DNA of 64,000 bases, taken from assembly GCF_030684315.1 (NCBI RefSeq), contig NC_081360.1, positions 27,759,818-27,823,817 of the forward strand, written 5' to 3'. Below, piece after piece: positions 6,852 to 63,080 of the stretch. Source of the DNA: Stegostoma tigrinum (lineage: Eukaryota). The notes beneath the pieces are model-generated. The model saw nothing but the letters and a program-made list of their open reading frames with translations, did no database searches and had not been told where the DNA came from. The translations under genes and the position numbers were made by a program. Each line of letters opens with the position of its first letter. Position 1 is the first letter of the stretch.

Positions 6852-7224
6852 TTAATAAAATGTGAGGCTGGATGAACACAGCAGGCCAAGCAGCATCTCA
6901 AGAGCACAAAAGCTTTTGTGCTCCTGAGATGCTGCTTGGCCTGCTGTGTTCATCCAGCCTCACATTTTATTATCTTGGAAGCTTTTGTGCTCCTGAGATG
7001 CTGCTTGGCCTGCTGTGTTCATCCAGCCTCACATTTTATTATCTTGGAAGCTTTTGTGCTCCTGAGATGTTGCTTGGCCTCCTGTGTTCATCCAGCCTCA
7101 CATTTTATTATCTTGGAAGCTTTTGTGCTCCTGAGATGCTGCTTGGCCTGCTGTGTTCATCCAGCCTCACATTTTATTATCTTCGAATTCTCTAGCATCT
7201 GCAGTTCCCATTATCTCTGATACT
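6852..7224. repeat. Penelope-terminus-derived element: one inverted arm plus 4 x 69-bp tandem units
   Basis: Units start at 6910, 6979, 7048, 7117; hairpin centred on CACAAAAGCTTTTGTG; flanked by AGGTTTACCAGGTT at 6840-6853 and 7225-7238. Confidence 0.9.
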
Positions 7225-10190: not shown

Positions 10191-11067
10191 CTTATTTGCA
10201 AATGAAACCTGCCTCAGTGAAAGTTGTCTTTCTCTTTTCTAATAAATATTAAATAGAATCTGCTTCTTCTGACCCAGAGGCTGACATCAAGGTATGGAGG
10301 ATTGTTAATTTCATCGAAGTGTTCTACTTCTTTCTATTGCAGTACCAAGGGGCTCTTACAGAATGAGATTCACAAGGGGCCCAACTTTGGAGAACGGATG
10401 ATGGAATTCATGGATGACTGTCGATCTGTCTACAATTGTTTCGATTAGCAGGACATCCACTCCTGTCATGTGATGGACGGTTACTGGATTTAAATGAACA
10501 TCCCAACTACAGAGGGCGACAGTACTTCATGAACACAGTGACTGGGGAGGCTACAGCTCAACTACTGGATCTTTCGGACTCGTGTGAGATTTCTGGATTG
10601 TTGTTGTAAAATATATTTTTCTTTGTAGAAATATTCATGAGAATAATAAAGTAATCTCTACTAATCTACCATGTTGTGTTTTTATCTTTGAATTCTGATG
10701 AAAATAGCACTGTTAGCAATGATATCCCAAGTTCACAGGCAGAATATTTCACCGCTTGGTCTCAGCTCTCATTCATGCAGAATAGTGGAAGTGATCAAAT
10801 AAATTCCACTGTGCAAGTTTGATGTACATAACCGCTGAAAACAAAAATGAACTTGTAAATTACCGTGAATAGGGATCTCATAAAAGTAACAGACGTCAAC
10901 GATGATCAATGCTTAATTTTTATCTTTGATGAAAGCTGACATAAAAAATTAAAGTAAAAATATAAAAAATACCATTATGCACACAGGTCTAAAAGAATGT
11001 ATCTTTTTAACACGTGGAAAATATCCAAAGATCTGTCAGCTACCACATTTCTGCTTTCGAGCACTTA

Positions 11068-11420
11068 TAGAACAAGAAACAAAGAAAATTACAGCAAAGG
11101 AACAGGCCCTTTGGCCCTCCAAGCCTGCCCCGATCCAGATCCTCTAAGCCTGTCAGCTATTTTCCAAGGATCTGTACCTTTTTGCTCCCAGCCCATTCAT
11201 GTATCTGCCTAGATACATCTTAGGTGACGCTATCGTGCCCACCTCTACCACCTCCACTGGTAATGCATTCCAGGCACTCACCACCCTCTGAGTAAAGAAT
11301 TTTCCATGCATATCTCCCTTAAACTTTTCCCCTCTCACCTTGAAATCGTGGCCTCTAGTAATTGAGTCCGCCACTCTGGCTAAAATCTTCTTGCTCCTTA
11401 CCCTGTCTATACCGCTCATG
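11068..11420 (-). mobile_element. CR1 LINE 3' fragment
   Basis: TRGHDFKVRGEKFKGD...FFTQRVVSAWNALP on the reverse strand. Confidence 0.85.
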
Positions 11421-11924
11421 GAGAGTAGGAGAATGTAGGAGTATTTACAAACGTGCTGTAATTTCAAACTGCAAAGGCTTAAACAGTTTTTCCAAAACAA
11501 GAACAAAACAACATTGTCTAAATGACAAATTACTTTTTATACATTTGCTGCAGGCTATTATAATCTATGATATTTATAACAAAGCTCTGTTTAAAACATG
11601 GACAAATCATATGCGGGGATTGTAGTCGAAGTTACACTAAATATGGAAATGCAATTTTAAATTTAAGAATTGTGAGCAATAAGATACTGAGTGTATATTA
11701 ACCACGAGCAGAAGCATTTGTACAAATTGAAGTAGAGGAAAGGAGAGCAAGGCAGGCAAGCTTAAGTCTATTGTGCAATCAATCTTCAACCAAAAAATTG
11801 AAAAGTAGTTGGAAAATAAAGTATGACAAAATGTGTTGCAAAAAATAAAAACACAAAACAAATTGCCATAAAATAGTAGAAGGAATAAAAACAAGACATG
11901 AAGCCGAATAAGGTGCCACAATTA

Positions 11925-12258
11925 AGAGAGGCAATGGCTCAGCTAATGTTCTGGGGAGCAGTGTGTGAATCCTGCCATTGGAGATGTTGCAGTTTGAATT
12001 CAATGAAGTAAAACATCTGGAATTAAGAATTGACTGATGAGCATGAAACCATTGTCAGGAAAAAACCCAACTAGCTGAGTAATGTCATTTGGGGAACAGA
12101 ATATGCCATACTCACTTGGTCTGACTTCCATGAGACTCCAGATGCACATTAATATATTTGACTCTCAAATGCCCTCTGAAATAGCCTGGCAAGCCATTCA
12201 GTTCAATAAGTGCTGCCAAGCCAGTGACACTCATATCCCATGAGTGAATAGAAAACAA
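11925..12258 (+). mobile_element. tRNA-derived SINE, second family (decayed)
   Basis: Homologous to 45509-45826 (CATGAAACCATTGTC, AAAACCCA.CT.G, CAATAA.TGCTG tail). Confidence 0.75.
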
Positions 12259-12324
12259 AATGTTGATGTAACACATCAAGGTAGAAAATCAAGTTTTGAA
12301 CAAAAACAAAACAGTTATGTGTAG

Positions 12325-14700
12325 TTCTCTTTAAGAAAATAGAGACGAATGGTCACATTCTGTGCTGCCAGATTCATTGATTCCATGTTTACCTTGTTTT
12401 TGAGTTTAAAGATGTCAGTTCTGGTAACCATGTTTGTGATCATGGCATAAATGTATCAGATTCTAGTTGATTCGTATCTCTTGAATTATGATTCCCCAAA
12501 GCTTTTCCTTCACTGCTTTCCTTTTGTAACTAGTGAAGAATCCAAGCTCCCGTCCCCATGTATGCACATTCTGAATCAAACTATCACTGCCTTTTTATTG
12601 TTTTGTTTTTATTCAAATCTCAAATCAGCTAATGTGTAACTAATAACAAAGCGGAAAAAAGTAGGTAACAAAAGGATATACTTGAGAGTATGGAACCAAA
12701 AGTGTATAATGACCTATGCTAATACATCATCATAGGGAGAAGCAATATTGTTCTCAAACAGATATTGAGACTGACATGTCTTCTGGACTTTGATGAATAA
12801 TTTGAAATGAAAACAAATTAACAGTTATGCACCAATACAAACTTACCTGCACAGTAATAATTTAAGCAACGCTCTCCAGATATGCATTTCTACGTATTAA
12901 CCAGTTTGGGAATGGGCCTGTCTAATTATACCAAACTTCTGCGAAAATTATACCAAACATATCCTTTTGAATGTGCAATGACACTGAGAACTGCAGAGGA
13001 AGCATGGTGTAAGGAAAACAATAGGCCCCAGGGTCCCGACTCAAAATGTCAGCTTTCCTGTTACTTTGATGCTGCCTGGCCTGCTGCTGTGTAGGGGTCT
13101 CTTTCCCTTACTCAGGCTGGTATCTGGGGTTCCCCAATTACTGTGGTGGTCTCTCTCCAGCAGGCTCTGAAACTTCAAAGACCCGGACTGCCACACTAGG
13201 GCAACTCCTCTGGAGAGGGCGCTGAACCGAACTCACTGTTTGTAGACTGACCAGGGAGTCGGAGCTTATCTCCACACAGTAATCGCGACCGCCACCAATG
13301 CCTGGGCGATTCCCTCTCTTGTTGGTGGGACAACAGCCACCTGGTACCTACCCACTCGGGCAGTACTCCCGAGAGAGAGAAAAAGAGAGTTCAAATTGCT
13401 TACCCTGGGCAGCAATCCCCCTTGAGTGGGCGTTTCGAATCGCCTGGATCACCCTCCGGTCCTTGACACTGAAATTATAGTCTGGGGTCTGCTGTGAACT
13501 CAGGCAAAATTGGTGTACCCAGAAGGAGCACAGGCGGACTCAAATATGAGTTCAAATTTACCAGTGAGCTTTATTACAGAAAAATTCAACTTGCCCAATC
13601 CGCACAATACCTCAATGAAACTTATACTCTATACTATGATATAAAATATAAGAAAATTGGAACAGACACAATGTAAATCTTTAACCTTACACAATTTACA
13701 GGGTACTTATGCCTTAAGAATCACACAACCACCCTCCCCCCCTTGCCTAACCAACTACCCCAGGGTACGAGAGTCCCTAGCCTGAAAAGGGTTCTTCCGG
13801 TCTCAGGGGGACTTGTTGCTTGTCTGGTGGGGGTCTCTCTCTGCCTCGGGTGTTGTTGTGGACTTCCGAAGTCTGAGGTCGCAGACAGGGTCGATGTCTT
13901 CAGCCCCAAGGGTTGGTGTCCAAAGGAGCAGCGAGCTCAGAGAGAGGAGAGTGAGAAAAGAAGAAGAGCAGCAAGGGCCCTGATAGCTGGCCCTGCTGCC
14001 CCTTTTACCCTTACGATTCCAAAGTGCTGGCCGGCTCCGCACCCCCCGCCCCCACCCCACCCCAGGTAATTCCATTTCACAAGCATCTCCGGTGATTGCT
14101 GGGGCCGGTGTAGTCTCATCATTCGTGGAAACAAAGGGGTCGATACTGTCCCAAATTTACTTAACTGAAATTTTGATGACTTCATGGAGCCTCCCAAACT
14201 GTTTTCAGATTAGAATAAATCGTTACCCCATTAACTAGATAGGCTCCATTGTTCACAGTTTCGGGCTCATTACCATTTCTATGCCTGTCCCTTGATAAGA
14301 CGTCTGGCAGGTGCTGGTTTGTTGGTCAAGTTGTCTCACACCTCTGTAGATCTCTGTCCCCAGATGCCTGCACAGACGTCAGGTTGACCAGTTCTTCACA
14401 AAAGGCCATTTTCTTTCAGTCTTTCCTTTTTAAAACTGGGGATTGCCCTGAAACTGCTATATCTAAGTCTACAACGTATTGTTGCCTGCTTTCATGCAAT
14501 TAAAAGGAAATGGAAGCAAAACACTACAATGATACCCTAAGTGCCTTTTGAATATTTTCTTTGCATTGACTGTATAAGTCATGAGTTACACAGTCTTTGT
14601 GGTGATTTTAAATCATTGTAAGACTATTTCCAACTTTCTTGAGGCTTCAGGCAATTTACAGCTTATGACCTCTGACAGCTTCCAATATTTCTGCTCTGAC
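12325..14700 (+). other. gene-less duplicate of the pseudogene-2 locus (upstream region fused to downstream flank)
   Basis: 12325-13028 and 14475-14618 align with 16800-17663; 14621-14698 aligns with 19676-19753; no exons in between. Confidence 0.85.
13090..14473 (-). mobile_element. solo-LTR-like insertion, 1384 bp
   Basis: Ends TGTAG...CTACA; interrupts the duplicated promoter region; GC-richer than flanks; AATAAA on the - strand at 13571; orientation is tentative. Confidence 0.6.
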
Positions 14701-15200
14701 TGAAATAACTCCACAGAGGATGGTTTCCCATCACCAAATCTCCCTTTATTTGCATGTGGAGAGTCCATTACACTGATCCTGCTCCCTTAATGCCAGCTCT
14801 CAGAGTGAGCAGAGCCTCTGACACACCAGTTTATGTCTGTCAGCCAGGGCTCCCTGATTGGACCAAGTTAACAACCCCAATCAGAGAGATCACATTTCAT
14901 GAGGTCTATCTGGCCGGCCTCATTGCAATCACTGCTTTGTTCCTGTCTGAAATGAGGAATCGGCCAGTTCTTTCTTTTTGCAGCTTCTTCTGAGGCGTTA
15001 CAGCATGGGGTTGGGTTCTTCTAACTCTGCCTCTGATATGTGCAGCATGTAATGCACAGTAGCTCACCTTTGCACCCGGACTATCTTGGATGAAATTTAT
15101 TCTATTCCTCAGGTGGCAAAGGCGTCAAAATGGCACGTCAATAGCAGGTCATGCTTGTGATTATAGTTTGTCAACATCTGAGAGGATGAAAACTGTTTCC
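14700..15200 (-). mobile_element. probable LTR-retrotransposon remnant (LTR plus internal 3' part)
   Basis: LTR-like segment with inverted CTGATTGG...CCAATCAG; lies on the other side of a CR1 insertion from a Gypsy pol fragment. Confidence 0.4.
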
Positions 15201-15224
15201 TCAATTCCCCGAAGACTAATAGAT

Positions 15225-16540
15225 TCAGAGTCAGAGAGATGCATAGCATGCAAACAGACCCTTCAGTCCAACTCCTCCATGCCGACTAGATATTCTACAT
15301 TAATCTAGTCCCATTTTTTCAGAATTTGTCCCATGCCCCTCTAAACTTTTCTTTTCCACACATCTATCCATGTGCCTTTTGTACCAGCTCCGCCGTCTCT
15401 CCAGAACTTCTTCTGGCAGTTCATTCCATACAAACACCACACTTGACTATTCACACTATCCATGGCCCCTCATGATTTTACAAACATCAATAAGGTCACC
15501 CCTCAGCTTCTGACGTGCCACAGAAAATAGCTCCAGTCTTTTCAGTCTCTCCCCATAGCTCAAACACTCGAACCCTGGCAAATCTTTTCCGAACCCTTTC
15601 ATGTTTCACAAAATCCTTCCTATAGCAGAAAGGCCAGAAATGAATGCAGTATTCCAAACATGGCCAAGCCAATGTCCTGCACAGATGCAACATGACCTCC
15701 CAACTCCTAACTCAATGTACTGACCAATAAAGGCAAATGTACCAAATGCCTTCTTCTTTACGCTGTCTACCTACAACTCCACCTCCAAGGAACTTTGAAT
15801 CTGTGTCCCAAGGATTCTTTTTTTGGCAACACTCCCCAGGACATTACCATTGTGTGTCTGCACCCTGCCCTGATTTGCCTTACTGAAACGCAGCACCTCA
15901 CATTTATCTAAATTAAACTCCATCTGCCACTCCTTGGCCCATTTGACCATTTCATTATAGTTGTACTCTGAGGTAACTTTCTTCACTGCCCGCTATGCCG
16001 CCAATTTTAGTTTCATCCGCAACTTACTAACCATACTTCCTATATTCACAACCAAATCATTTCTATAAATGACACATAGCAGTGGACCCAAGCACAACCC
16101 CTGTGGCATTCTGCTGATCACAGGTCTCCATTCCAAAAAGCAATCCTCCACCCCCACTCTATATCTCTTATCTCTGCACTAATTTGGTATTCAAATGGCT
16201 TGTTGTCTCTGGATTCCTTGTGATCTATCCTTGCTAACTAATCTACTACACAGAACCTTTTCAAACGCCTTATGGAAAGCCATATAAACAATGCCCACCT
16301 CACTGCCTTCAATAATCTTTTTTGCCACTTCTTCAAAAACTCGATAAAGTTAGTGAGACATGATTTCTCCTGCGCAAAGCTGTATTGAGTATTTCTAAAC
16401 AGTCCTTGCCTTTCCAAATGCATGTAAATCCTAACTCTCAGAATTCCCTCCATCAACTTACCCACACTGCTCTCATGCTCACCAGTCTATAAGTTCCTGG
16501 CTTTTCCTTACTACCTTTCTTAAATAATGGCACCACATTG
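15225..16540 (-). mobile_element. degenerate CR1 LINE ORF2 fragment
   Basis: GKLMEGILR..IY.HLE..., KSCLTNFIEF, WAKEWQMEFNLDKCEVL, LEYCIHFW on the reverse strand. Confidence 0.9.
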
Positions 16541-16544
16541 GATA

Positions 16545-16730
16545 GGGAATGTGAAAATTTCCAAGGCTGACACCTTTTTAAGAGTAGATGCAGGATGCCA
16601 GAATGGAAGCCAGGTGATGTATGAACTTTGTGTCATAGATCACCAACCCAAGGAAAGACCTAAGCTCTGATACAGCTGTGGAAGCCAGGCCACCATTGAT
16701 TACATGTGGAGGTAGTAGAAACTGCCGATC
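16545..16730 (-). mobile_element. Gypsy-type pol fragment
   Basis: VSELRSFLGLVIYDTKFIHHLASILA resembles the LRSFLGLVNYY.KFI.NLA motif following the RT core. Confidence 0.6.
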
Positions 16731-17779
16731 ACATGTGAAAAGTAAGAAAATTATAGGGCTATATGAAAAGTGCAAAGGAGTGCAACTACTTCTCGTCCTC
16801 TTTAAAAGAATAGCCAGTCATAATGGGGTGAATGGCCACATTCTGTGCTGCCAGATTCACTTATTCCATGTTTCCCTTTTCCTTAGACATGTCAATTCTG
16901 GTAATCAAATTTGTGATCATGGCATAAATGTATCAGATTTTAGTTGATCTACGTCTCTTGAATTAGGATTCCCCAAAGCGTTTCCTTCACTGCTTTCTTT
17001 TTGTAGTAACTAAAGAATCCCAAGCTCTTATCCCATGTCTGTACACTCTGAATGTACATCCTGAATTTAACTTTGATCAAAACACCACCACCTTTCTATT
17101 GTTTTCTTATTCAGATCTCACAGCAGCTAATGTATAATTTAGAAGTAAGTGGAAAATAATGGCTAACAAACAGATGTACATGACAGTATTGAACCAAAAG
17201 TATACATTGACACATGTTAATACAACATCGTAGCTATAGGTAGTATTGTTCTCATACAGAAGTGGAGAGTGAAAAATTCTGCTGGACTCCATTGAATAAT
17301 TTGGAATGAAAACATATTATCAGTTATAAATCAATACAAACTTATGGATTGAGTAATATTTTAGCAACAGTCTCCAGACATGCATGTTTGTGTGTTTACC
17401 AGTTTGGGAGTGGACCTATCCAATCATACTCAACATTTGGAAACATATTCTTTTTATTTGCAATGACACTGAGAACTGCGGTGGAAGCATGGTATAGGGA
17501 ACACAATAGGTTCCAAAGTATTGTTGCCTTCTTTCACACAACAATTACATTGAAATGGAAGCAAAACACTTTCAATAATATTTAAGTGTCTTTTAAATGT
17601 TTTCTTTGCATTTACTGTATACGTCATTTGTTATGCAGTCTTTATGTTGATCTCAAATCATTGCATTTATTTGAATAACAAAAAGAAAATGCTCAGTGAG
17701 TCATTTCTGCCTAGCAAATAAATACCAAGCTGTGTGAAGCAGTAACACATTCAGTTATGAAGCCAACTCTGAACACATA

Positions 17780-19333
17780 ATGGGAAATGCAAGAATTACT
17801 TTGCATTCATATACTGTATTAAGATTTTGCAAATAGATATTGCAGAGTTTGAGAAATTATGAATTTATAAATCTGTTTCTTTCCCACAGATCATCTTTTA
17901 TGAGAACAGGAACTTCGGAACTTCCAGGGTCGGCACTATGAGTGCAGCAGTGACTGTGCCGGCCTGACCCTTTACTTCAGCCGCTGTAACTCCATCCGTG
18001 TTGAGAGTGACTGGTGGGTGCTGTATGAGAAACCCAATTACATGGGATACCAGTATGTTCTGACCAGGGGAGAATATCCTGACCATCAGCGCTGGATGGG
18101 ATTTAAAAACAACATCTGGTCATATCAGACTTACCCATACATACGCTGTTTCTGATGGTTTGTATTTTTTGACCAAACTCACACTGAAAAAAAATTAATG
18201 CACTCAACATTTAGATTTGTGCAAATCATTGTAAAGGACATCTTTATTTTCACAGATAACAAGGTGCAGATCTGGATGAACACAGCAAGCCAAGCAGCAT
18301 TAGAGGAGGAAAATTTTCTGAAGAAGGGCCTAGGCCTGAAACGTTAGCCTTCCTGCTCCTCTGATGCTGCTTGGCCTGCTGTGTTCATCCAGCTCTACAC
18401 CTTGTTATCTCGGATTCTCCAGCATCTGTAGTTCCTACTGTCTCTTTATTTTCAGTTTTGATTTTAGCTTTCATCAGTAATGGTAACAAATAGGGGATTG
18501 CCACACAACCAATTTGATTTACCAATCCACTATGTTGTGTTTCTGTCACTACCAAAAGCTAGGAACTGCCCTTGACACCTTGTAACTGCACTTGAAATAT
18601 GGCTGGACTGTCAGCCAACAGTTGTGCGAACTGGGAAGTTAGTTGTATGTCATATACTGACAACCTGTCGCAAACCTGATGATCATCTGGGATAAAATTG
18701 AAACACTTACTAATTACGAATCAGCTATTCAGAACTGGAAGGCAATTTGGCATATTGATATTGCAGAAAGTAACAAGGTAAAATTGACTAAAATATGACT
18801 CATTACAATTTGTCGATAGACATGTTTGTATTCACCCCATTTATCTTACTGTAAATATTGAAAAGATTACAGAAATAGGAAAGCCGACCCAACATGGAAA
18901 AGCAGTCTCTTCACAACGGGAGCCAGAAATACTTGAAGATTTTTACTGATATCAATATACTTCTGTCCGTAAACACAAAATATTACCAATCCCACAAGAA
19001 TTGAATGTAGATATATTTGGAGCTGTACCTCAAATCTTTCATGTCTTTCTATTGCACTACCCAGGAGGATCTTACAGAATGAGGATTTACGAGAGGCCTG
19101 ACTTTGGAGGACAGATGATGGAATTCATTGATGACTGTCCTTCTGTCTACGATCATTTCCATTACCATGACATCCACTCCTGCCATGTGGTGGATGGTTA
19201 CTGGATCTTCTATAAACATCCAAACTACAGAGGGCAACAGTATTTCACGAGACCTGGTGAATACAGATGATATAGTGACTGGGGAGACTACAGCTCTACT
19301 CTAGGATCTATCAGGCACAAGAGGGATTTTTAG
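17780..19333 (+). pseudogene. gamma-crystallin pseudogene 2 (exons 17780-17788, 17890-18140, 19058-19333)
   Basis: 8-nt duplication GGAACTTC x2 (17909-17924) frameshifts exon 2; exon 2 donor is AT (18141); exon 3 acceptor is AC (19056-19057); premature TGA at 19268; TATA box degraded to AATAAA. Confidence 0.93.
18253..18442. mobile_element. Penelope-derived inverted-repeat element with hammerhead core (+, about 18318-18347) in intron 2 of pseudogene 2
   Basis: CTGAAGA-AGGG-CCTAGG-CCT-GAAAC-GTT; flanking direct repeat TCTTTATTTTCA at 18241 and 18443. Confidence 0.82.
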
Positions 19334-19774
19334 CCTGCAACTGTAACACCTGGCTTTATTTTGTTGAATCATTTGTCAATATAACACCCTCTATTACACT
19401 GCCCCCTTTCTAATTCACTCATAATTGTGTCCTCATTAAAATAGTTCAAAATAGTTCTGGCATATGGGGGTATCATGGAGAATATATTACCATAGTGAAC
19501 TCAGTGACAACATCCACATTAAAGTCAGTAATTAGAAAAGGAACAAATACCAGACTAAGGCAGAAGCATTGTGAATGACCTGCCAGCACCAGCCCCTGTT
19601 GATGTTTTTTTTAGAATTTCTGGAGTCAGTAAGAGAGAAACTGTACAAGACCCAAGCTGGACCTGCCTCAGTGATGATTATTTCCAACTTTCATGAGGCT
19701 TTTGAGACATTTTGCAGCTTACTGAGTCTAATGGCTTGCAAGGTTTCTGCTCTAAATTTAGGTGTGCTTCCATT

Positions 19775-20165
19775 CCCTCCACCACTGATGCTGAGTGGCA
19801 GCTGTGTGTGTTATGCACAAGACACACTTCAGAATTTCACCAATGATCCTCAGACTGCACCCTCCAAACCCTTAACTACTTTCATCCAGAAGGACAAGGG
19901 CAGCTGGCATTTGGGAACAGCACCATCTTCAAGCTCGCCTCCAAGACACTCATCCCTCTGACGTAGAAATATATCGGCATTCCTTCATTGTCACTGGGCC
20001 AAAATCCTAAAATTCCCTCCCCACTGGCATTGTGGGTCAACTCACAGCAGGTGGAGCGCAGAGGTTCAAGAAGGCAGCTCACCACCACCATCTCAAGGGC
20101 AACTAGGGATGGGCAATAAATGCTGGACAGCCAGTGATGCCCACATCCCAAAGAATAAATAAATT
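19775..20165 (+). mobile_element. 3' fragment of the LINE family seen at 8100-10190
   Basis: Reverse complement of about 8100-8480; ends AGGGATGGGCAATAAATGCTGG. Confidence 0.8.
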
Positions 20166-21639
20166 TTAAAAAAGAAGGAACTTGAATCATTCAACTTCCT
20201 CCATTCTTTGCTGCACAATGCCCGAGAAGGTCTTGGCAGAGTCCACGTAGGAATTCTAACTAAGCTCAGAATTTAGTCTCCCTTTGATTCAGAGATCTTT
20301 ATTCCACCTCCGTAGTCAGACCTCTGGTGAATCTAAAGAACTTTAATCCATGCCAATTGAATCAGTGCGACATTAACAATTTGATGTGGTGACTTCAAGA
20401 AAAAGCAGACTGAGAATGTATTTCACAATGAATAAGAAGTACTTGTCCTGAGATGGAACCTAAGGTGATCAATTATTTAGCATTCTAGTTTGCCTCAGAA
20501 ACATGAAACAAAATTGCACATTTCAATTAAAATTAAATGAAGGTTTATGAATAATTCTCCATTGGGCAGCAATAAGAATGCCTTGCCATTTTATCAAGTC
20601 TACAGTTGATGAAAACATCCAAAAGTCTCACGTAAGAGCCTTAAAAAATATTTCACATTCACCCATATAAAGAGATTTTAGAGCATATGACTGCAACGGT
20701 GCTCAAAGAGGTCAATTTTAGGGAATAGCTTAAATGAGAAATGAAGTGTGAAAGAAATTTTTGAAGCGAATTTTAGAGATGGATATTTGTGCTAGATGGC
20801 ATTCACAACCTGGAATAGTCTGAACGCCAGAGTTTGTTGAGTAAAGGCTGTAGGGCAAGAGAAGATTACTGAGATAAGGAAGAGTGAGGTTTTTGAAGAA
20901 TTTGAAAAGGAGGTTGAACATTTTAATAAAACCAAAGAACTGAGGATGCTGGAAATCTGAAACATAAACAAAAATTTCTTGAGAAACCCAGAAAGTCTGG
21001 CAGCATCTGTGGAGAGAAAAGCTGTGTTGACATTGCTGGTCCCCTGATCATTCATCAGAACTCAGCTTTTGGATACAGGGTGATGCATAATGGAACTTGG
21101 TTCTAGCTAAAATGTTGACGGCAAAACATTGGTTGACCTTTAATTTCCAGCTGCTGCAAAGTGGGAGGCCAGCCAGGTCTGTATTGTGATAGCCGAGTCT
21201 AGCGCTAACTAGGCTGAGGGTTTTATTAGGAGATAATAAAACTTACAGGATGGTTATTGAATCAAAGGAGGATATTCAGCCCATTGTAACAATACTGGCT
21301 TTCTATTAGCTCAACTCAGCAAGTTCAGGCCTCTCCTTTTCCTTATATTCAAGCAATATCATTTGATAGGGCTGCCCAGGGCTGAAGCAGCATTACATGG
21401 CTGAAAGTGGTTAGGAGTTGAAATAAAGTTGTTGAGGAAGATTTTTTAGCTGAAACAGCAGCTTGCACAGTTTGCTGTTTCAAGTCAAAACTATAAACTA
21501 CAGTAATTAAATGCCTCATAGAAGGGAAATATCCAGGGTCACAAAATTAAGATAGCAATCATAAGGTCTTTTGAAATGCATACGAAAGAGTCATGTGGGA
21601 CATAATGTGGAGGTGCCACTGTTGGGCTGGCATGGACTT

Positions 21640-26967: not shown

Positions 26968-28637
26968 ATGGGAAAGGTAAGAAAAGCTTAAGAATTTGCA
27001 TTAGAATTCTTCATTTCATATCTTGTTGTTTGACAAATCTATCTCTTCCCACAGATCATCTTTTACGAGGACAGGAACTTCCAGGGTCGGCACTATGAGT
27101 GCAGCAGTGACTGTGCCGACCTGTCCCCTTACTTCAGCCGCTGTAACTCCATCCGTGTTGAGAGCGACTGGTGGGTTCTGTATGAGAAACCCAATTACAT
27201 GGGATACCAGTATGTTCTGACCAAGGGAGAATACCCTGACTACCAGCGCTGGTTGGGATTCAATGATAACATCTGGTCATGTCGCAGTTACCCATATGTG
27301 AGTCATAAATTCATTGTTCTTATAGAAAAAGTGAGCTAGTCAATTGATTTATGTTTGCAATTTTTAGTTTCTTTATCTTTTATGCATTGAATAAAAACTA
27401 TTCCAATGGTTTTGCATTCCCGCTTTCCTTCATCATTCATCCACATTTGAAAGTCGTAAGCTTCAACTGTTTGCCAATGTTGCATCTTTCACAATAACAT
27501 TTCCTCAGGGCTGCCCCGATTGATCGCTGTAGCTGATGGAAAATCAATGGAACTGCAGGAAACACTGTTAGGCAAGTGGGGTTGTGGATTTCCACTCAAC
27601 CTCATAGAAAACACGGGTACCAGTCAAAACAATTTCCCAGCAAGCTCTTAGTTGAATGAGTCTTAAAAGAAAGGATTAGTTTCCCTGAACATTTGAATTA
27701 TTCAAGCTTTGGAAATCAGTTTGAAATCTGACTTGAATAATTCCAATTCTCAAATATGTGATATAGCGAATATGACATCTTGAGTAAATTGCCACAAAAC
27801 ACAGTATGGATAAAGACCAAGGTCTTTCTTTCACTTCACTCCCAGGTCGTATAACCAAGGGTAAAGTATCACACACCATGCAGGGATTTAGGTGACAAAT
27901 CAGCCATGATCTCGTGAAATGTTGAAACAGGGTGAAAGTGCAAAAAGATTGAATCCTTTTATTTTATTCTCACTGGATGTGAATAATCAACTGAACGTGA
28001 AATCAGTATTCAAATTAGAAATTTTGGTTTCCACTCCTCAAAGCTGTCTTGAATAGAATTTCAGTACAAAAATACGGTCATATATTTGAGCAGTAATGGC
28101 ATTTACTAAATATTTTATAAATTGATACCACAGGATACATATAGCCGCTGACTCTGACTCTGACTCATGAATACCAAAATTATAAATGTTAGACATTTGC
28201 AGTATTCTGTCTATACCTGGAGGCAGAAAAGACAGCTTAATGCTTTGTGTGAACTTTAATTGAAATGGCTGACAATACTACAAGCATAACATTGCAGTAA
28301 TTTTACTCATTATAGATACTGTTATAGCTGTTTCATAAAGTTTCTTGTCTTTCTATTGCAGTACCAAGGGGGCTCCTACAGAATGAGGATTTATGAGAGG
28401 CCTGACTTTGGAGGACAGATGATGGAATTCACAGATGACTGTCCATCTGTCTACGATCGTTTCCACTACCATGACATCCACTCCTGCCACGTGATGGACG
28501 GTTACTGGGTCTTCTACGAACATCCCAACTACAGAGGGCGGCAGTACTTCCTGAGACCCAGTGAATACAGGAGATACACCGACTGGGGAGCGACCTGTTC
28601 AACTATTGGATCATTCAGGCGCATGAGAGACTTCTAG
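26968..28637 (+). CDS. gamma-crystallin gene 3 (shark gamma-S1-like), join(26968-26976,27055-27297,28362-28637), 175 aa
   Basis: MGK|[53 protein letters not shown]...|[23 protein letters not shown]...[10 protein letters not shown]; four Greek-key motifs; GT-AG phase-0 introns; TATAAA 26907; AATAAA 28686. Confidence 0.96.
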
Positions 28638-38801: not shown

Positions 38802-40453
38802 ATGGGAAAGGCAAGAATTATACTGTTTATATATTGTGTCAGAATCTTCCATAAAGTGTTGCAGAGTTTGAGAAATGAGTGATTTACAAAGACTTATATC
38901 TTTTCACAGATTATCTTTTATGGGGACAGGAACTTCCAGGGTCGGCACTATGAGTGCAGCAGTGACTGTGCTGACCTGACCCCTTACTTCAGCCGCTGTA
39001 ACTCCATCCGTGTTGAGAGTGACTGGTGGGTGCTGTATGAGAAACCCAATTACATGGGATACCAGTATGCTCTGACCAGGGGAGAATATCCTGACTACCA
39101 ACGCTGGATGGGATTCAATGACTGTGTCCGGTCATGCCGTTCCTATCCATACGTAAGTGATTTCTGCTGGTTTGTATACCTGGTCCAAAGTAACACTGAT
39201 AAAATGATCAATTTGCTCAACATTTGATAACCTGAACAGCAGATCTGTAGAAGCATTGGCTACTTGCACAGGCCTGAAGTTAACTTCTGCCACTGGCGTT
39301 AGCAGGCAGTAGACTCTCTGGCTGTCACCCATCCCAAGCCTCATTTATCGATTCACATGTTTCTGTCACTACCAACAACTAGTAAAGAGTCTCTGCAAGT
39401 TTGATCTTAAAATTATAATGAAGCAGTTTGCTTCTTAAGTCAATAGTTGTGCAAACTGAGCATTTTGCTTTTGCATCTGATGGCAGACAGTCCAAACTGA
39501 CACAACGACTGTGTAGTAAGTAATAAAGTTATCTACAGATGTACTAAGAAATAACTGAATACAACCAGTTAACAGATATATTTATACTTAGTCACTTTAG
39601 CTGTTTGCAAGTATTCAATATATGTTATAACAGAGAGAAAGTTACCCAACTTGGTAAATCACAAAATTACAATTATCACAAAAAGATTTTCATGGATTTT
39701 GATAAAACTCAGTATGTGTCCAACTAATATCTGTCACACATATGCTCTTACAGGCACTTCTCTGATTAGATGTACAAAATTACATAGAAACATTACAACC
39801 TAACAAAGTGATATTAATAAGTAATCTTAGCTTTGCTCCCATGATTGATGTCATCAACTGGGCCTTGTTATATGTCAATATTCACCATGTTTCACTCTAT
39901 TACTACTGCCATATGCGGGATTTGTTTAGCTCAGTTGAATGGTTGAGAAATGTAGATTAGTACGAAGTGTGTTTTTAGTCTCTGTGCTGATTGGGGACGT
40001 TCTTAGAGGTCTGGCTCACGACCCCTCTGCATGATTAGTCTGAGGTGGTATCACACAACAAAGATCCAAATGTGTAAGTGTCTTTTTCTCTCTGTGTACA
40101 GGGAATGATGCCATTTAGGCTAAACATTTTACATTTTTTAAGTATATATTTACAATATTATCTTATTTCTATTGCAGTACCGAGGAGGGTCCTACAGAAT
40201 GAAGATTTACGAGATGCCTGACTTTGGAGGACAGATGATGGAATTCACAGATGACTGTCCATCTGTCTACGATCGTTTCCGTTACCGTGACATCCACTCC
40301 TGCCACGTGATGGACGGTTACTGGATCTTCTATGAACATCCCAGCTACAGGGGGCGGCAGTACTTCCTGAGACCCGGTGAATACAGGAGATACACTGACT
40401 GGGGAGGCTACAGCTCAGCTGTTGGATCTTTCAGGCGCTTGGGGCATTTCTAG
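38802..40453 (+). CDS. gamma-crystallin gene 4, join(38802-38810,38910-39152,40178-40453), 175 aa, GC-AG first intron
   Basis: Open frame through all three exons; donor AAG|GCAAG; TATAAA 38739; AATAAA 40482; C-terminus RRLGHF. Confidence 0.92.
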
Positions 40454-43400: not shown

Positions 43401-43769
43401 AAATTTGAAAGATGTGATGGGATCTGGATAAACAAAGTGTGCTGATTATGTAGTCTGAAAATATCCACATAGTTCTATTGATATAAAGCTTGGCCAAAGT
43501 GACACATTCTGCTCTATTTCAATTTCTTTGCATATGCAAACTAAACAATAAACAAAGCAACGATATCTGCTTATAATCTAAGCAGAGATCACAGTTCAGT
43601 GCTTTTTGTGTATTTTACTTTGAGAATAACTCAGGCCCCTAATCTTTTGCTTCGTTTTTTTTTCTGTAGGACAATCAAAATGACACGAAAGCAAACTATA
43701 AAGGGCTAATAGAATGCATCGCTCTGAGTAAAGGTGTTCTATTGTACTATCGGTAACATATTTTAGTTC

Positions 43770-43846
43770 TTTTTTTTGCTGATCTGTGCTTGAGCTTGTT
43801 TAAAATAACAAAGGCAGTTGCTGCAATGGCCTCTCAAACATATAAA
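43770..43846 (+). promoter_or_regulatory. proximal promoter of gene 5 (Maf half-site, Sox-type site, TATA)
   Basis: TTTTGCTGA with TGCTGA at 43777, ATAACAAAG near 43805, TATAAA at 43841. Confidence 0.72.
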
Positions 43847-43905
43847 TACAGAACAACCAGAGAGATGGCATGCTCAGGCACAGCTGTATCAATTGTGAGC
43901 TCACA

Positions 43906-46122
43906 ATGGGAAAGGTATGGTTAACCCTTACAGTTTTCATATTTTTATTAATAATTAATTGGAAAATACAAATATTTTGTTTCATTTCCTTTGCCCACAG
44001 ATTATCTTTTACGAGGACAGGAACTTCCAGGGTCGGCACTATGAGTGCAGCAGTGACTGTGCCGACCTGACCCCTTACTTCAGCCGCTGTAACTCCATCC
44101 GTGTTGAGAGTGACTGGTGGGTGCTGTATGAGAAACCCAATTACATGGGACACCAGTATGTTCTGACCAGGGGAGACTATCCTGACTATCAGCGCTGGAT
44201 GGGATTCAATGACTGTGTCAGGTCATGTCGCTCCTACCCTTATGTAAGTTAAACATTGTCCTTATAGATAAAATGACTGGTCACTTGGTTTATATTTATG
44301 GAGGGTTATTCACCTATTGCTTTAATCAATCAAAAAGTTGAATGGTTTGTTAATTCCACATTCCTGGGCGGCATCTGTTCATAATTAATTTAAATTTTAA
44401 AATGGAATCTAAGTGGTAAGCTGCATGTGTTTGCCTGAGCTGTAACATTCATGATTTTCCTCAGGACTGATTGATCGTCATAGCATTGATAGCAAATAGA
44501 TAGAATTGCTGTGATACACTGAGAGGGTCAAAGGTGTATTCCCACTCATCTTCCACAGATATCACAGACACCAGTCAAAACAACGTCTGCATAAACTCTC
44601 ATTGATATATGTCTTCACAAACGATATAGTAAACAGAGTGATTAAGCACTCATGATAAACCAGATACTAGAAAGGTGAGAGAAACGTAACCTGAATTTAT
44701 TCAGCCAACTAGTGTTCATATATGTATCTACATAGTGGACAACTCATGAGAAAACAGCACTTGAAATGGTCTCTTGACTTTCTTCCATTCCACTCCCAGG
44801 AAGTACTGGTTGGAAGTAACTCTTTTGGCTAGTGTACGGATTTAGGTCATAATCATCCAGGATCTCATTGAGTGCCAGAAGAGGCTTGAGGGGCACTATT
44901 GCCTATTCCTGTTCCTATGTTCCCATATTTACAAAATCAGTATTCATAAACTGGATATCCATTTCTAGCACCAAGGCTGGGTACAGTGTAATTTCATTCC
45001 ATAAAATTTTCAGCTCATGTTTTTATTTTTATCAGCAGTAATTTTTATTCAATGTTTGACAGTATTGACTATTATTAAAATGCTGATTGATACACAAAAA
45101 AAACAAAAGAACTGCGGATGCTGTAAATCAGGATCAAAACCAGAAGATGCTGGAAAAGCTCACTAAGTCTCGCTGCAACAGTGAAGAAAAAATCAGAGTT
45201 AATGTTTCAGGTCCGGTGATCCTTCCTTAGAACAGAGGAAGGTTCACCAGACCCGAAAGGTTAACCCTGAAGTTTTTCTTCACTGATTGACATATATCTG
45301 GTAGCCAAACACAGCATACTGCAAAACACAAAAGGGACATGAGCAGCTTCGTACAAAATAGGCTGTTAAATGCCTTTGTTTGAGAATTTTCATCAAAAAT
45401 GTAAATAGTTTTCCTGATGATGTTACAAGTCTAAAAACATCCTCTTTTACATAACTTTACTGCATTTTGTACAATATATTTTACTTGCATTACGAATGTT
45501 CCATCTCAGGGGAGGTGATGGCCTAGTGATATTATTGTTAGACTATTTAACCTGAGAACCAGCTAATGTCCTGGAAACCTAGGTTTCATTCCTGAGATGG
45601 AATTAAGAGTCTCATGATGCACATGAAACTATTGTCATTGTCAAAAAAAACCCATCTAGTTCACTAATGCCCTTCAGGGAAAGAAGTTGCTGTCCTTATA
45701 TGGTCCGTCCTACACATGTCTACAGTACCAAAGCAATGTGATTGATTCTTAACTGCCGTTTGGACAATTAGGGATGGGCAATATATTCTGGCCTGACTAG
45801 TGATGTCCTCATCCAGTGAAAGAATTTTAAAAATATTCTATTGCAGTACCGTGGAGGCTCCTACAGAGTGAGGATTTACGAGAGGCCTGACTTTGGAGGG
45901 CAGATGATGGAATTCATGGATGACTGTCCATCTGTCTACGATCATTTCCGTTACCATGACATCCACTCCTGCCATGTGATGGATGGCTACTGGATCTTCT
46001 ACGAACATCCCAACTACAGAGGGCGGCAGTACTTCCTGAGACCCGGTGAATACAGGAGATACACTGACTGGGGAAGCTACAGCTCAGCTGTCGGATCTTT
46101 CAGGCGAATGAGAGATTTCTAA
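43906..46122 (+). CDS. gamma-crystallin gene 5, join(43906-43914,44001-44243,45847-46122), 175 aa
   Basis: Open frame, canonical GT-AG introns, TATAAA 43841, AATAAA 46173; ORF track shows exon 2 (43959..44252) and exon 3 (45841..46122). Confidence 0.96.
45509..45826 (+). mobile_element. tRNA-derived SINE, second family, in intron 2 of gene 5
   Basis: TGGCCTAGTG A-box-like, GGTTTCATTCC B-box-like, tail TAGGGATGGGCAATA.AT.CTGGCC shared with the LINE 3' end. Confidence 0.8.
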
Positions 46123-49780: not shown

Positions 49781-51693
49781 ATGAAAAAGGCAAGGATAAA
49801 TGTATTCTGTCCATGTATTCATCATTAAAGATTGTCTAGCTTTTGAAATTATTAATTGGCAAACACATCTTTTAACAAATCAAACGGATAATATTTTACG
49901 AGGACAGGAACTTCCGGGGTTGGCACTATGGGTGCAGCAGTCACTGTGCCGACCTGTCCCCTTACTTCAGCCGCTGTAACTCCATCCGTGTTGACAGTGA
50001 CTGGTGGGTGCTGTATGAGAAACCCAATTACATGGGATACCAGTATGTTCTGACCAGGGGAGAATATCCTGACTACCAGCTTTGGATGGGATTCAATGAC
50101 AACATCAGGTCATGTTGTACCTACCCATACATAAACTATTGCAATGATTGTTTCAGGTCACATTGCTGTTACCCATATGTAAGTGATTTCTGATAGTTCT
50201 TGTTTTCTAGCCCAACTGAAATTGAAAATGACCTGTGTGCTCAACATTCATGTTTGTGTACATCAAGTCTGTAGAATTATTGTTTGTTTCCACAGTGCTG
50301 ACTTTAACTTTTGCCAGTATACCTTGGAAAAGTGGTGAAGTGTCTGCCTGACAAAACATCCAAGCATCATCACAGAATCTACAGTGTGGAAACCGGCCAT
50401 TCAGCACAACAAATCCACACCAACTCTCCAAAGAGAATCCCACTCAAAATCACCCATCCCTGCAATCCTACCCTGTAACCTTGCATTTCCCATGTCTAAT
50501 CTACCTAACTGACACATCTTAGGACACTACAGACAATTTGGCATGGCCAAACCACCCAGCCTGAACATCTTTCGTACACTGGGTGGAAACCGGAGTACGT
50601 GGCCACCACACAGACAGAGGGAGAATGTGTAAACACCATACAGACAGTTGTCCAAGGTGAAATTGAACCCAGGTCCTTGGTGCTGTGAAACAGCGATGCT
50701 AACCACTGAGCCACGAACCAGCCTAACTCATTTACTGATCCACTAACACATGTATCTGTCACTGTCCAAAGTCATTATCTGTCCTTGTAATTTTGACCTT
50801 CCAGAAAAGTAAAATGGGTTATTCCTTCAGTCAATCGTTGTGCAAACACAGTGTAGTTTCTAGGTGACATCTGACATGATTCTGTTGCAACATTGATGAA
50901 CATCTGGGATGTGAAGAGAAATGGTTATTGTCATTAATTAGACAGCCAGTAAAAGTCAAATTGCTGCAATGACAGTGTAGAAAGTAAGCATGTTATTACA
51001 GATGGGCTAGTTCCATACTGTATGTTGAGAGATATATTTGCACACAGCCCAATCATTTACTGCGAATAATTGAAACGTTACAGGAAATATAAAGCTGCCC
51101 TCACTTGGAGAAACAGATTCCTCACAATAGGAACCAGAAGTACATTTAGACTTTTACTGTTATTAATAAACTCCAGTCTAATATCAGCCTCATGCACGCT
51201 TACAGACACTTCGCTCATTATATGCACTAATTAAATAGGAACTATTTATTGGTAAAGAAATGTCAAACATAATCCAACTATTGAATCAATTTAAAAAATT
51301 AAATCAACTTTGCCCTCATTGATGGTGTCATTAATTGGCCTCATTGTATTCCTTCTTACACGACATTTCTCTTTTTCTAAAGGTACCATACATGGATCTG
51401 TAGTTTCCTCACTGATATCATCTTATTTCTATTGCAGTACCAAGGATTTACGAGAGGCCTGACTTTGGAGGACAGATGATGGAATTCATGAATGACTGTC
51501 AATCTGTCTACAATCATTTCCTTACCATGACATCCACTCCTGCCATGTGATGGATGGTTACTGGATCTTCTATGAACATCCCAGCTATAGAGGGTGGCAG
51601 TACTTCATGAGACCTGGTGAATACAGGAGATACACTGACTGGGGAGGCGACAGCTCAACTGTTGGATCTTTCAGGCGAATGAGGGATTTTTAA
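49781..51693 (+). pseudogene. gamma-crystallin pseudogene 6 (exons 49781-49789, 49888-50178, 51438-51693)
   Basis: ATGAAAAAG|GC; exon 2 acceptor CGG instead of CAG; duplicated exon 2 3' end; exon 3 is 256 nt (19-nt and 1-nt deletions) and frameshifted; TATA box is CATAAA. Confidence 0.92.
50370..50714 (-). mobile_element. V-SINE (HE1-like) in intron 2 of pseudogene 6
   Basis: Reverse strand GTGGCTCAGTGGTTAGCA, GGTTCAATTTC; homologous to 7480-7803. Confidence 0.82.
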
Positions 51694-60660: not shown

Positions 60661-60980
60661 CTCTTTTCCTTCAGATGCTGCCTGGCTTGCTGTTTTATTC
60701 CAGCCTTCTGTTTGTTTGGCTAGTATTCACATCTTTTCTACTTACATATATAAAATAACTAATGAATAAAAGGACAATGCCTGGCTTGTGACAATTCAGC
60801 AGAGTTCAAATGTTTTTTTGTGTATTGTATTCTAAGAATAACAAGGGGCCCCTCAACTTTTGTTTTTTTTTCCCTGCAGGACAAATCAAAATGACATGAA
60901 AGCAAAACACAAAGAGCCAATTGTTATCTGTCACTCTGAATAAAGGTACTTTGCTGAAATATCTGTAACACATTTTAGGT

Positions 60981-61055
60981 TATTTTGCTGATCTATGCTT
61001 GAGATTGTTTATCATAACAAAGGCAGTGTCTGCAATGGTAACTCAAACGTATAAA
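60981..61055 (+). promoter_or_regulatory. proximal promoter of gene 7 (Maf half-site, Sox-type site, TATA)
   Basis: TTTTGCTGA with TGCTGA at 60986, ATAACAAAG near 61015, TATAAA at 61050. Confidence 0.72.
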
Positions 61056-61114
61056 TATGGAGGATCCAGAGTGAGAGCACGTTCAGGCACTGCTTTATTA
61101 ACTGTGAGCTCAAA

Positions 61115-63080
61115 ATGGGAAAGGTGAGGTTGATTCTGATATTATTTACATTTTATTAATGATTCATCAGAAAATACAAATATTTCATTTGCTTCCTTTG
61201 CCCACAGATCATCTTTTACGAGGACAGGAACTTCCAGGGTCGGCACTATGAGTGCAGCAGTGACTGTGCCGACCTGACCCCTTACTTCAGCCGCTGTAAC
61301 TCCATCCGTGTTGAGAGTGACTGGTGGGTGCTGTATGAGAAACCCAATTACATGGGATACCAGTATGTTCTGACCAGGGGAGACTATCCTGACTACCAGC
61401 GCTGGATGGGATTCAATGACTGTGTCAGGTCATGTCGCTTCTACCCATATGTGAGTCACAAGTTCATTGTCCTTGTAGAAAAAAAATGAGCTGGTCAATT
61501 GACTTATATTTAGAAAGATCTGTTTAACTACTTATTTGGATAAAAGTTATTTACTTCATATTTTCATGCAATCAATTTAATTGATAATTATTTGAAATTT
61601 TAATTTGGAACTTAAATTGTAGCCTGCAAATTGGAGGCCTATGCTTGCTCAGTAATTTCCTCAGGACTGTCCTGATTGACTGCTATAATTTTTATGAGAG
61701 AGTAATGGAAAAGCTGATTCCCTGATAGGAGCAAGGGGAAGGTGGGGGCTGATGAATGGACTTTTCTCAGTCTTCTCAGATGGTGATCAATCAAGGCAAT
61801 TTCTGAACAAATTGCCGGTGACATATCACTTGCGAAAGGAAAAACATAAGAGCGCGTAAATATAACAAAGTAGGCACTAAAGTAATGAAAGAACGCATTA
61901 AAGTATATATCAGAGAGCAACATACTTAAAACTAAGGCTGACTTGACTTGTCAACTAACTAACTCGAAAACATAGTGCCAAAGCAAACTTTCTGGGTAAT
62001 CTTCTACTTCTTTCACAGTTGATGTGAAGATATCAAAGAGCCCAGCTTGGATATGCCTCAGTTCAAAAAAGGGATGAAAGTGCAATGTCATTTATCATTA
62101 GTAGATTTAAAAGTTGGAATTACAACAATAAAAACAAACATAATAAGTGAACATCTTCTTGTCTGTCATGGATTCTCCAGCATCTGCAGTTCCCATTGTC
62201 TCTTCTTGTCTGTCATGGATTCTCCAGCATCTGAAGTTCCCATTGTCTCTTGTTGTCTGTCATGTCCACTGAGACTTGCGCTAAGCCAAGTCTTCTCCTG
62301 CAGTTGCATTCAAAAGGGGAAAGTTTGGATTGTTTTTTGTAATGAAGATTTTTATATGCCCTATCATTAGCCTGGCTAGAACTAAGGGTTTGCCTTGGGT
62401 GCAATGGAGGTTTAATGCTTTATAATGGAACAAGTGACTATTTCTGCTGTTAGGGACTATAAGGAACATATTGAAAAAATTAAAGATCAATCTTTCAGGC
62501 TGAACTTAGCACATTGTCCTACTTGCTAAGAGTGGTAGATGTAATTCTTTTCCAAAAATGACAAGTGATGGCAGATCAATGATTAGTTTGGCTAGGCAAA
62601 TTTGTTAAATGAAATTGAGGGAAGGCAAATATTTGGGATTACATCATAATTAGTCACAAGCTCCTTGAATATTGGAATAGAGTTGAGGGGCAAAATAGCC
62701 CACTCCAGTTCTTATGATTCTCGGTTCCCAGTATTAACACGTACACTGCTAAATGTCAAATCAACGTAGCTGCATCAAAAATCTTTCACTTCTTTCTATT
62801 GCAGTACCGAGGAGGGTCCTACAGAATGAGGATTTACGAGAGGCCTGACTTTGGAGGACAGATGATGGAATTCACAGATGACTGTCCATCTGTCTACGAT
62901 CATTTCCGTTACCATGACATCCACTCCTGCCACGTGATGGACGGTTACTGGATCTTCTATGAACATCCCAGCTACAGAGGGCGACAGTACTTCCTGAGAC
63001 CCGGTGAATACAGGAGATACACTGACTGGGGAGCGACCTGTTCAACTATTGGATCATTCAGGCGCATGAGAGATTTCTAA
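61115..63080 (+). CDS. gamma-crystallin gene 7, join(61115-61123,61208-61450,62805-63080), 175 aa
   Basis: Open frame, canonical GT-AG introns, TATAAA 61050, AATAAA 63128. Confidence 0.96.
62155..62265. repeat. 47-bp tandem repeat (2.3 copies) built from a Penelope-terminus fragment, intron 2 of gene 7
   Basis: CTTCTTGTCTGTCATG-GATTCTCCAGCATCTG(C/A)AGTTCCCATTGTCT twice, then CTTGTTGTCTGTCATG. Confidence 0.8.

Follow-up and report, generated by a model that had tools for sequence, protein, structure and literature searches.

A crystallin unit without a gene lies upstream of a broken gamma-crystallin gene of Stegostoma tigrinum: its upstream DNA runs, across three bases, into DNA that belongs 3' of such a gene, and the core promoter and all three exons are absent from between them. 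We refer to this unit as the ghost. It was most probably (we put the probability at about 0.62) a tandem duplicate whose gene body was later deleted at a microhomology, leaving a remnant without function.

The window, by which we mean the whole 64-kb stretch of DNA analysed, contains seven tandem gamma-crystallin genes, and the sequence-only reading that drew attention to the ghost called it an "eighth" unit, which is true only when the seven genes inside this window are counted.

ATG at 2663, plus strand: gamma-crystallin gene 1, broken
ATG at 17780, plus strand: gamma-crystallin gene 2, broken
ATG at 26968, plus strand: gamma-crystallin gene 3, open
ATG at 38802, plus strand: gamma-crystallin gene 4, open
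ATG at 43906, plus strand: gamma-crystallin gene 5, open
ATG at 49781, plus strand: gamma-crystallin gene 6, broken
ATG at 61115, plus strand: gamma-crystallin gene 7, open

Genes 3, 4, 5 and 7 have open frames of 175 residues, and genes 1, 2 and 6 (3/7 in the window) are pseudogenes. The exon layout of the window's genes is 9, 243 and 276 bp. Exons 2 and 3 of gene 7 passed the PF00030 cut-off in a Pfam search, and together they agree at 172/172 residues (81/81 and 91/91) with the Stegostoma tigrinum "gamma-crystallin S-1-like" protein P0031; for exon 3, the best solved relative is a gamma-B crystallin. This layout and the PF00030 match place the window's genes with the shark "gamma-crystallin S-1-like" genes. 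The ghost, in contrast, has no exon, and it is therefore a remnant of a gamma-crystallin-family unit and not a gene of the family.

Genes 2, 4 and 6 have a GC donor at intron 1 in common (17789, 38811 and 49790), and gene 4, which is otherwise intact, may be using its GC-AG intron 1. By their promoters (43603-44298 and 60815-61512), genes 5 and 7 are sisters with a support of 100/100; by exons, gene 7 joins gene 3 (83/98), with which it has the end of exon 3 in common, and this conflict between the promoter and exon trees for genes 3, 5 and 7 is a sign of gene conversion. Gene 6 carries a tandem duplication of about 48 bp over the end of exon 2 (50100-50180), with the first donor lost and the GT kept in the second copy. 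In gene 1, which is spread over about 8 kb, an insertion interrupts exon 2 (2929 onward) 157 bp in. The DNA between 24001 and 26000, with a GC content of 0.56 and a strong G skew of 0.51, is unlike the rest of the window and is probably an inserted element upstream of gene 3. At 6910-7187, a 69-bp piece of SINE-like repeat is present in four tandem copies matching at 97%.

Homology blocks and the missing stretch

The sequence-only reading had proposed self-comparison as a check, with a loss of collinearity as the outcome that would count against it. In self-comparison and local alignment, three blocks of the ghost are collinear with the unit of gene 2, all on the plus strand. The features of the two units are as follows:

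12327-13030, plus strand: distal upstream block of the ghost, against 16798-17515 (552/679 ungapped columns, 81%)
13031-13090, plus strand: fragment that we label SINE-like, matching many sites in the window
13091-14473, minus strand: insert that we label LTR-like from its 5-base inverted ends and a minus-strand AATAAA
14474-14618, plus strand: proximal upstream block, paralogous to about 17516-17663 (14476-14618 against 17518-17663, 119/142 columns, 84%)
14610-14621, plus strand: junction, in which 3 bases follow the final 9 of the upstream block
14622-14697, plus strand: 3' flank block, against 19676-19753 (62/75 columns, 83%, E 4e-10)
14701-14936 (ends approximate), no strand given: high-copy repeat, which ends the visible 3' homology
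16798-17663, plus strand: DNA upstream of pseudogene 2, to which the ghost's upstream blocks are sister
17780-19333, plus strand: pseudogene 2, with an 8-bp duplication in exon 2 (17909-17916), both splice sites of intron 2 lost and a stop in exon 3
17664-19673, plus strand: stretch absent from the ghost (TATA position, exons 1-3, both introns and 340 bp of 3' flank)
18223-18234, plus strand: second occurrence of the junction 12-mer, in intron 2 of gene 2
19676-19753, plus strand: 3' flank of pseudogene 2, the sister stretch to 14622-14697 in the ghost, with a further repeat from about 19770 onward

The alignment scores are 726 for the distal block against a shuffle maximum of 48, 175 for the proximal block against 40, and 82 for the 3' block against 33 (and no more than 44 in 1000 shuffles). 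When compared with the other 1.2-kb tiles of the window on both strands, the 3' block scored no higher than 39, and only one of the seven genes, gene 2, has homology to the ghost's 3' flank; the proximal block has weaker matches to genes 3, 4 and 6. The match of about 850 bp to the upstream region of pseudogene 2, as previously described, is therefore genuine homology, but it consists of two blocks around an insert of about 1.44 kb (13031-14473, SINE-like plus LTR-like) that had gone unmentioned.

The end of the upstream match at 14618 (equivalent to 17663) had been placed about 55 bp upstream of gene 2's TATA position, and we find the break 54-56 bp upstream of it; the far end lies 343 bp past the stop, in agreement with the 340 bp or so claimed. 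The upstream DNA had also been said to continue directly as 19676 onward. The block at 14622-14697 does match 19676-19753, but three bases (14619-14621) intervene between the two matches. By the best-scoring breakpoints, the missing stretch amounts to about 2,009 bp, with 3 bases of play in the register, consistent with the earlier figure of about 2 kb holding the TATA box and three exons.

No remnant of the gene body was found when 11 tiles of 17664-19675 were compared with 10660-16800, only the shared SINE-like repeat rising above shuffles. Searches for gamma-crystallin features in the ghost revealed no exon, no PF00030 Greek-key motifs and no TATA box or core promoter. None of the 15 ORFs of at least 80 residues in 10500-17700 is crystallin-like by eye, and Rfam gave 0 matches over 10600-20300. 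With no coding remnant left, gene loss at this place is invisible to ORF- or protein-based annotation, just as the sequence-only reading had asserted. To the left of 12325, the only homology is a shared repeat, and to the right of 14697 there is none (score 33 against a shuffle maximum of 35); the 3' match is only 76 bp long because the high-copy repeat comes next. About 290 bp at 14937-15226 match nothing else in the window (best score 45), and they may be 3' flank that has since been lost from the gene-2 unit. The repeat-masked self-comparison of the window contained no second ghost unit or gene-less promoter.

Gene 1, whose match to gene 2 starts at 17667, was considered as the displaced gene body and rejected, because it comes with a diverged upstream homolog of its own and its 3' end does not resemble that of gene 2. 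Duplication by crossing-over between the same-family repeats at 12018-12250 and about 20100-20160 was likewise discarded, as no hybrid copy was found in 14700-16800.

Read data and repeats around the junction

The 16 runs listed comprised four from organism B (same species; 0.76-0.82 of words; two samples from one study), nine from organism A (a relative; 0.06-0.08 of words) and three added by species label. Four of the 16 were analysed: X10 and X11 from organism B, and X2 and X7 from organism A. In both same-species samples, one of which may be the source of the assembly, the junction lies within a single 390-bp contig (14432-14821) with 0 differences or gaps, and it is thus not an assembly artefact. 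The depth of this contig equals that of the neighbouring single-copy contigs (21.4 versus 21-23 in X10; 9.1 versus 8-12 in X11), suggesting that the junction is present on both chromosomes in both organism B samples. All four runs cover the ghost's upstream block at close to single-copy depth.

The possibility that the 3' piece is a common repeat, which the sequence-only reading had named as fatal to its claim, received no support, with a copy number that is only loosely bounded. The window holds two copies of the block, in the order and on the strand that duplication predicts. The first 17 bases of the block fall in a bin with a mean depth of 5-19 in the organism A runs; for the gene-2 copy, the bin depth is wholly explained by the adjoining repeat and, taken alone, permits up to about 400-1,300 copies. 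Even if the 3' block is an old repeat fragment, its order and strand are most simply explained by its having been part of the copied unit. In organism A, none of the 8 pieces listed per run (of over 535,000) lies over 14474-14700, a hole that proves nothing; bin depth at the junction is 5.0 in X7, lower than the 7.6 expected for full cover, and 19.2 in X2, higher than 8.2.

Contigs of X10, X11 and X2 reach 13059 within the SINE-like piece and then stop, and at least the start of this piece is therefore common to organism A. The LTR-like insert abuts the cut SINE-like piece and has no visible target-site duplication, which is a hint of a second deletion inside the ghost. Its depth (bins 13284-14367) is about 400-1,400 in organism B versus 2-16 in organism A, corresponding to tens of copies in the former and almost none in the latter, so that it probably postdates the split of the two species, a weak dating given that the contigs have holes. 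On the other side of the junction, the bin 14639-14909 has a depth of 68,000-151,000 in all four runs, and organism B contigs break at 14821/14855.

Ancestry and order of events

The promoter tree built from the proximal block pairs the ghost with gene 2 as sisters with a support of 86/98, which is below the tool's starred level, and the ghost's identity over this block is 79% to gene 2 versus 48-64% to the other six genes. The ghost is positioned head-to-tail before gene 2. The tandem relationship claimed by the sequence-only reading thus stands; that an intact gene was once present and then deleted is the step that we infer, and no intact gene was seen at the ghost position in any genome or read set examined.

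The JC distances between the ghost and gene 2 are 0.215, 0.18 and 0.20 over the three blocks (about 0.10 per lineage, the 3' block having 75 columns only). The three collinear blocks are thus similarly distant from gene 2, as one duplication predicts. Between organism A and the window, about 5-6.5% of letters are different in this region, or about 0.03 per lineage, and the duplicate is about 3-4 times older than the split from organism A. This relative possesses the distal upstream block of the ghost (15/290 and 30/569 letters differ). Contigs from organism A that span the 8-bp duplication of gene 2 have a single gap letter (277 letters for 278 places and 389 for 390), meaning that gene 2 had been frameshifted before the species split. 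The private changes of gene 2 at codon positions 1-3 number 8/155, 9/158 and 11/134, about half the per-lineage distance between the ghost and gene 2; the unit was therefore probably alive when it was copied. The death of gene 2 would fall roughly midway between the duplication and the present, unless gene conversion among exons has shortened the estimate. The events would then have occurred in the order: duplication; death of gene 2; species split; and LTR-like insertion, with the ghost's deletion standing outside this order.

The promoter branch of the ghost measures 0.19 and that of gene 2 measures 0.086. A branch twice as long fits death at or soon after birth and argues against a later deletion, although the three relative-rate tests were not significant (15:8, 13:10 and 12:4; p 0.21, 0.68 and 0.08).

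Origin and meaning of the gene-less unit

The reading that we favour would run as follows: an old tandem duplication would have copied, head-to-tail, a unit of at least 3 kb consisting of upstream DNA, a gamma-crystallin gene and 3' flank; the 5' copy would then have lost about 2.0 kb, from the core promoter through the three exons to 340 bp into the 3' flank, with a short microhomology at the join; gene 2, the 3' copy, would have died separately through a frameshift, splice loss and a stop; and the leftover flanks, now without function, would have entered neutral decay, gaining the SINE-like piece, the LTR-like insert and another repeat. A microhomology-guided deletion is expected to have common bases at both parental ends. 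Here, 5/6 bases are common at the break, for which the chance is about 4% within 3 bases, in a scar blurred by divergence. Because of the roughly 20% divergence since the duplication, the repair route is not assignable and the microhomology is not readable with certainty.

A single clean deletion leaves the junction 12-mer in intron 2 unexplained. With both strands searched, this 12-mer occurs twice in the window, at 14610 and at 18223, the latter inside the missing stretch. Such a pattern would be expected if the duplicate had been gene-less at birth, through one replication-based template-switching event in which the upstream DNA was copied, a jump at a 9-base microhomology led into intron 2, a few bases were copied there, and a second jump led to the 3' flank; the duplicate would never have held a gene, none would have died, and a scar templated by intron 2 would still be legible. 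Exact junction words arose in just 0.16% of 20,000 shuffles, a looser junction alignment score at least as high was reached in 26/3000 shuffles, and the longer promoter branch of the ghost points in the same direction. However, the 12-mer test was post hoc (p about 0.002-0.02, overall about 0.01), 1/56 real stretches scored at least as high, and the rate difference is not significant. Moreover, 9/12 of the junction bases are an ancestral promoter word, found also in gene 6, so that only 3 bases are extra. If real, the 12-mer would stand either for two successive deletions, which leave the same scar, or for one template-switching event making a gene-less copy, and we regard the latter as possible but doubtful. 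The sequence left behind would be identical if a single step had produced a gene-less copy, or if a deletion had run across two sisters. It is unlikely that such a larger deletion, in which the upstream block and the 3' flank came from different gene-2-type sisters, removed two or more genes at once. Two sisters equal in age and a single copy look alike in sequence, and lineage-specific clades of 16-30 copies are described for other cartilaginous fishes (PMC11979771), but the extra copies needed left no trace in the masked self-comparison of the window, and all blocks are similarly distant from gene 2.

The retained upstream DNA might be taken for an orphan lens enhancer of neighbouring crystallin genes, since some 850 bp of DNA from upstream of a crystallin gene have been kept and organism A has at least part of them in common. 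This is quite improbable. Slower change than in neutral DNA was not seen in the one species pair compared: the ghost's upstream DNA differs from organism A at 5.2-5.3% of letters, about as much as the upstream and intron DNA of gene 2 (5.0-6.5%; intron 2 33/547, upstream 18/358 and 51/790). The block is split by the 1.44-kb insert, and the neighbouring genes on both sides are pseudogenes. About 130 bp before the ATG, each of the four open-frame genes has an intact TGCTGA motif, which is altered or absent in all three pseudogenes (genes 1, 2 and 6) and altered in the ghost, and an AACAA motif before the TATA box falls within the stretch that the ghost lost. We take these motifs to be Maf and Sox sites. 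PMC5737492 goes only as far as counting c-Maf and Sox1 as key factors for crystallins. The remnant thus shows no sign of function at the sequence level. Least credible of all is a chance or artefactual origin, with the 76-bp block an independently inserted repeat or the join a mis-assembly. The block is short, is adjoined by a high-copy repeat and has a loosely bounded copy number of its own, but only two copies occur in 64 kb, ordered and oriented as predicted, and the exact contig in both same-species samples largely refutes mis-assembly.

Deletion of a tandem duplicate, the preferred reading, has known counterparts. Birth-and-death evolution of multigene families includes loss by whole-gene deletion. 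In people, the alpha-globin and GSTM1 deletion alleles result from unequal crossing-over between long near-identical repeats, and they segregate as alleles. As in these cases, a duplicate would have been deleted with joined flanks left behind; unlike them, the ghost is joined within a single unit, where the microhomology spans about 6 bases, and the join has single-copy depth in both samples. Its short common bases and possible few-base templated insert resemble the products of microhomology-mediated end joining or template switching.

The closest setting is the gamma-crystallin cluster of the catshark, with 40 genes, within a duplication hotspot of jawed vertebrates for which the authors, in the available part of the text, expect a high rate of degeneration and report one putative pseudogene (PMC11979771). 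As far as that text goes, the two clusters are alike in having tandem shark gamma-crystallins, lineage-specific duplication and dead copies; they differ in that the catshark's dead copy keeps crystallin-like transcribed sequence whereas the ghost keeps none, and loss of a whole gene body is unmentioned there (PMC11979771). Our literature search, which covered titles and the starts of abstracts with subscription papers mostly outside it, found no description of a ghost remnant or a gene-less crystallin unit, a result that does not show absence from print.

The ghost is an ordinary case, a neutral by-product of known birth-and-death turnover, and it reveals no new function or mechanism. Its value lies elsewhere: it is a concrete trace of the high degeneration proposed, in the part of the text available, for the gamma-crystallin hotspot (PMC11979771); and it means that one of the four dead units in the window (three pseudogenes and the ghost) is hidden from protein-based annotation. 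This suggests that self-alignment of non-coding flanks is a cheap way to count hidden losses in tandem clusters. If the duplicate was indeed stillborn, the vertebrate gamma-crystallin hotspot may regularly give rise to gene-less units; its turnover would then be larger than a tally of genes and pseudogenes implies, and the hidden share could be measured in shark clusters by scanning flanks alone.
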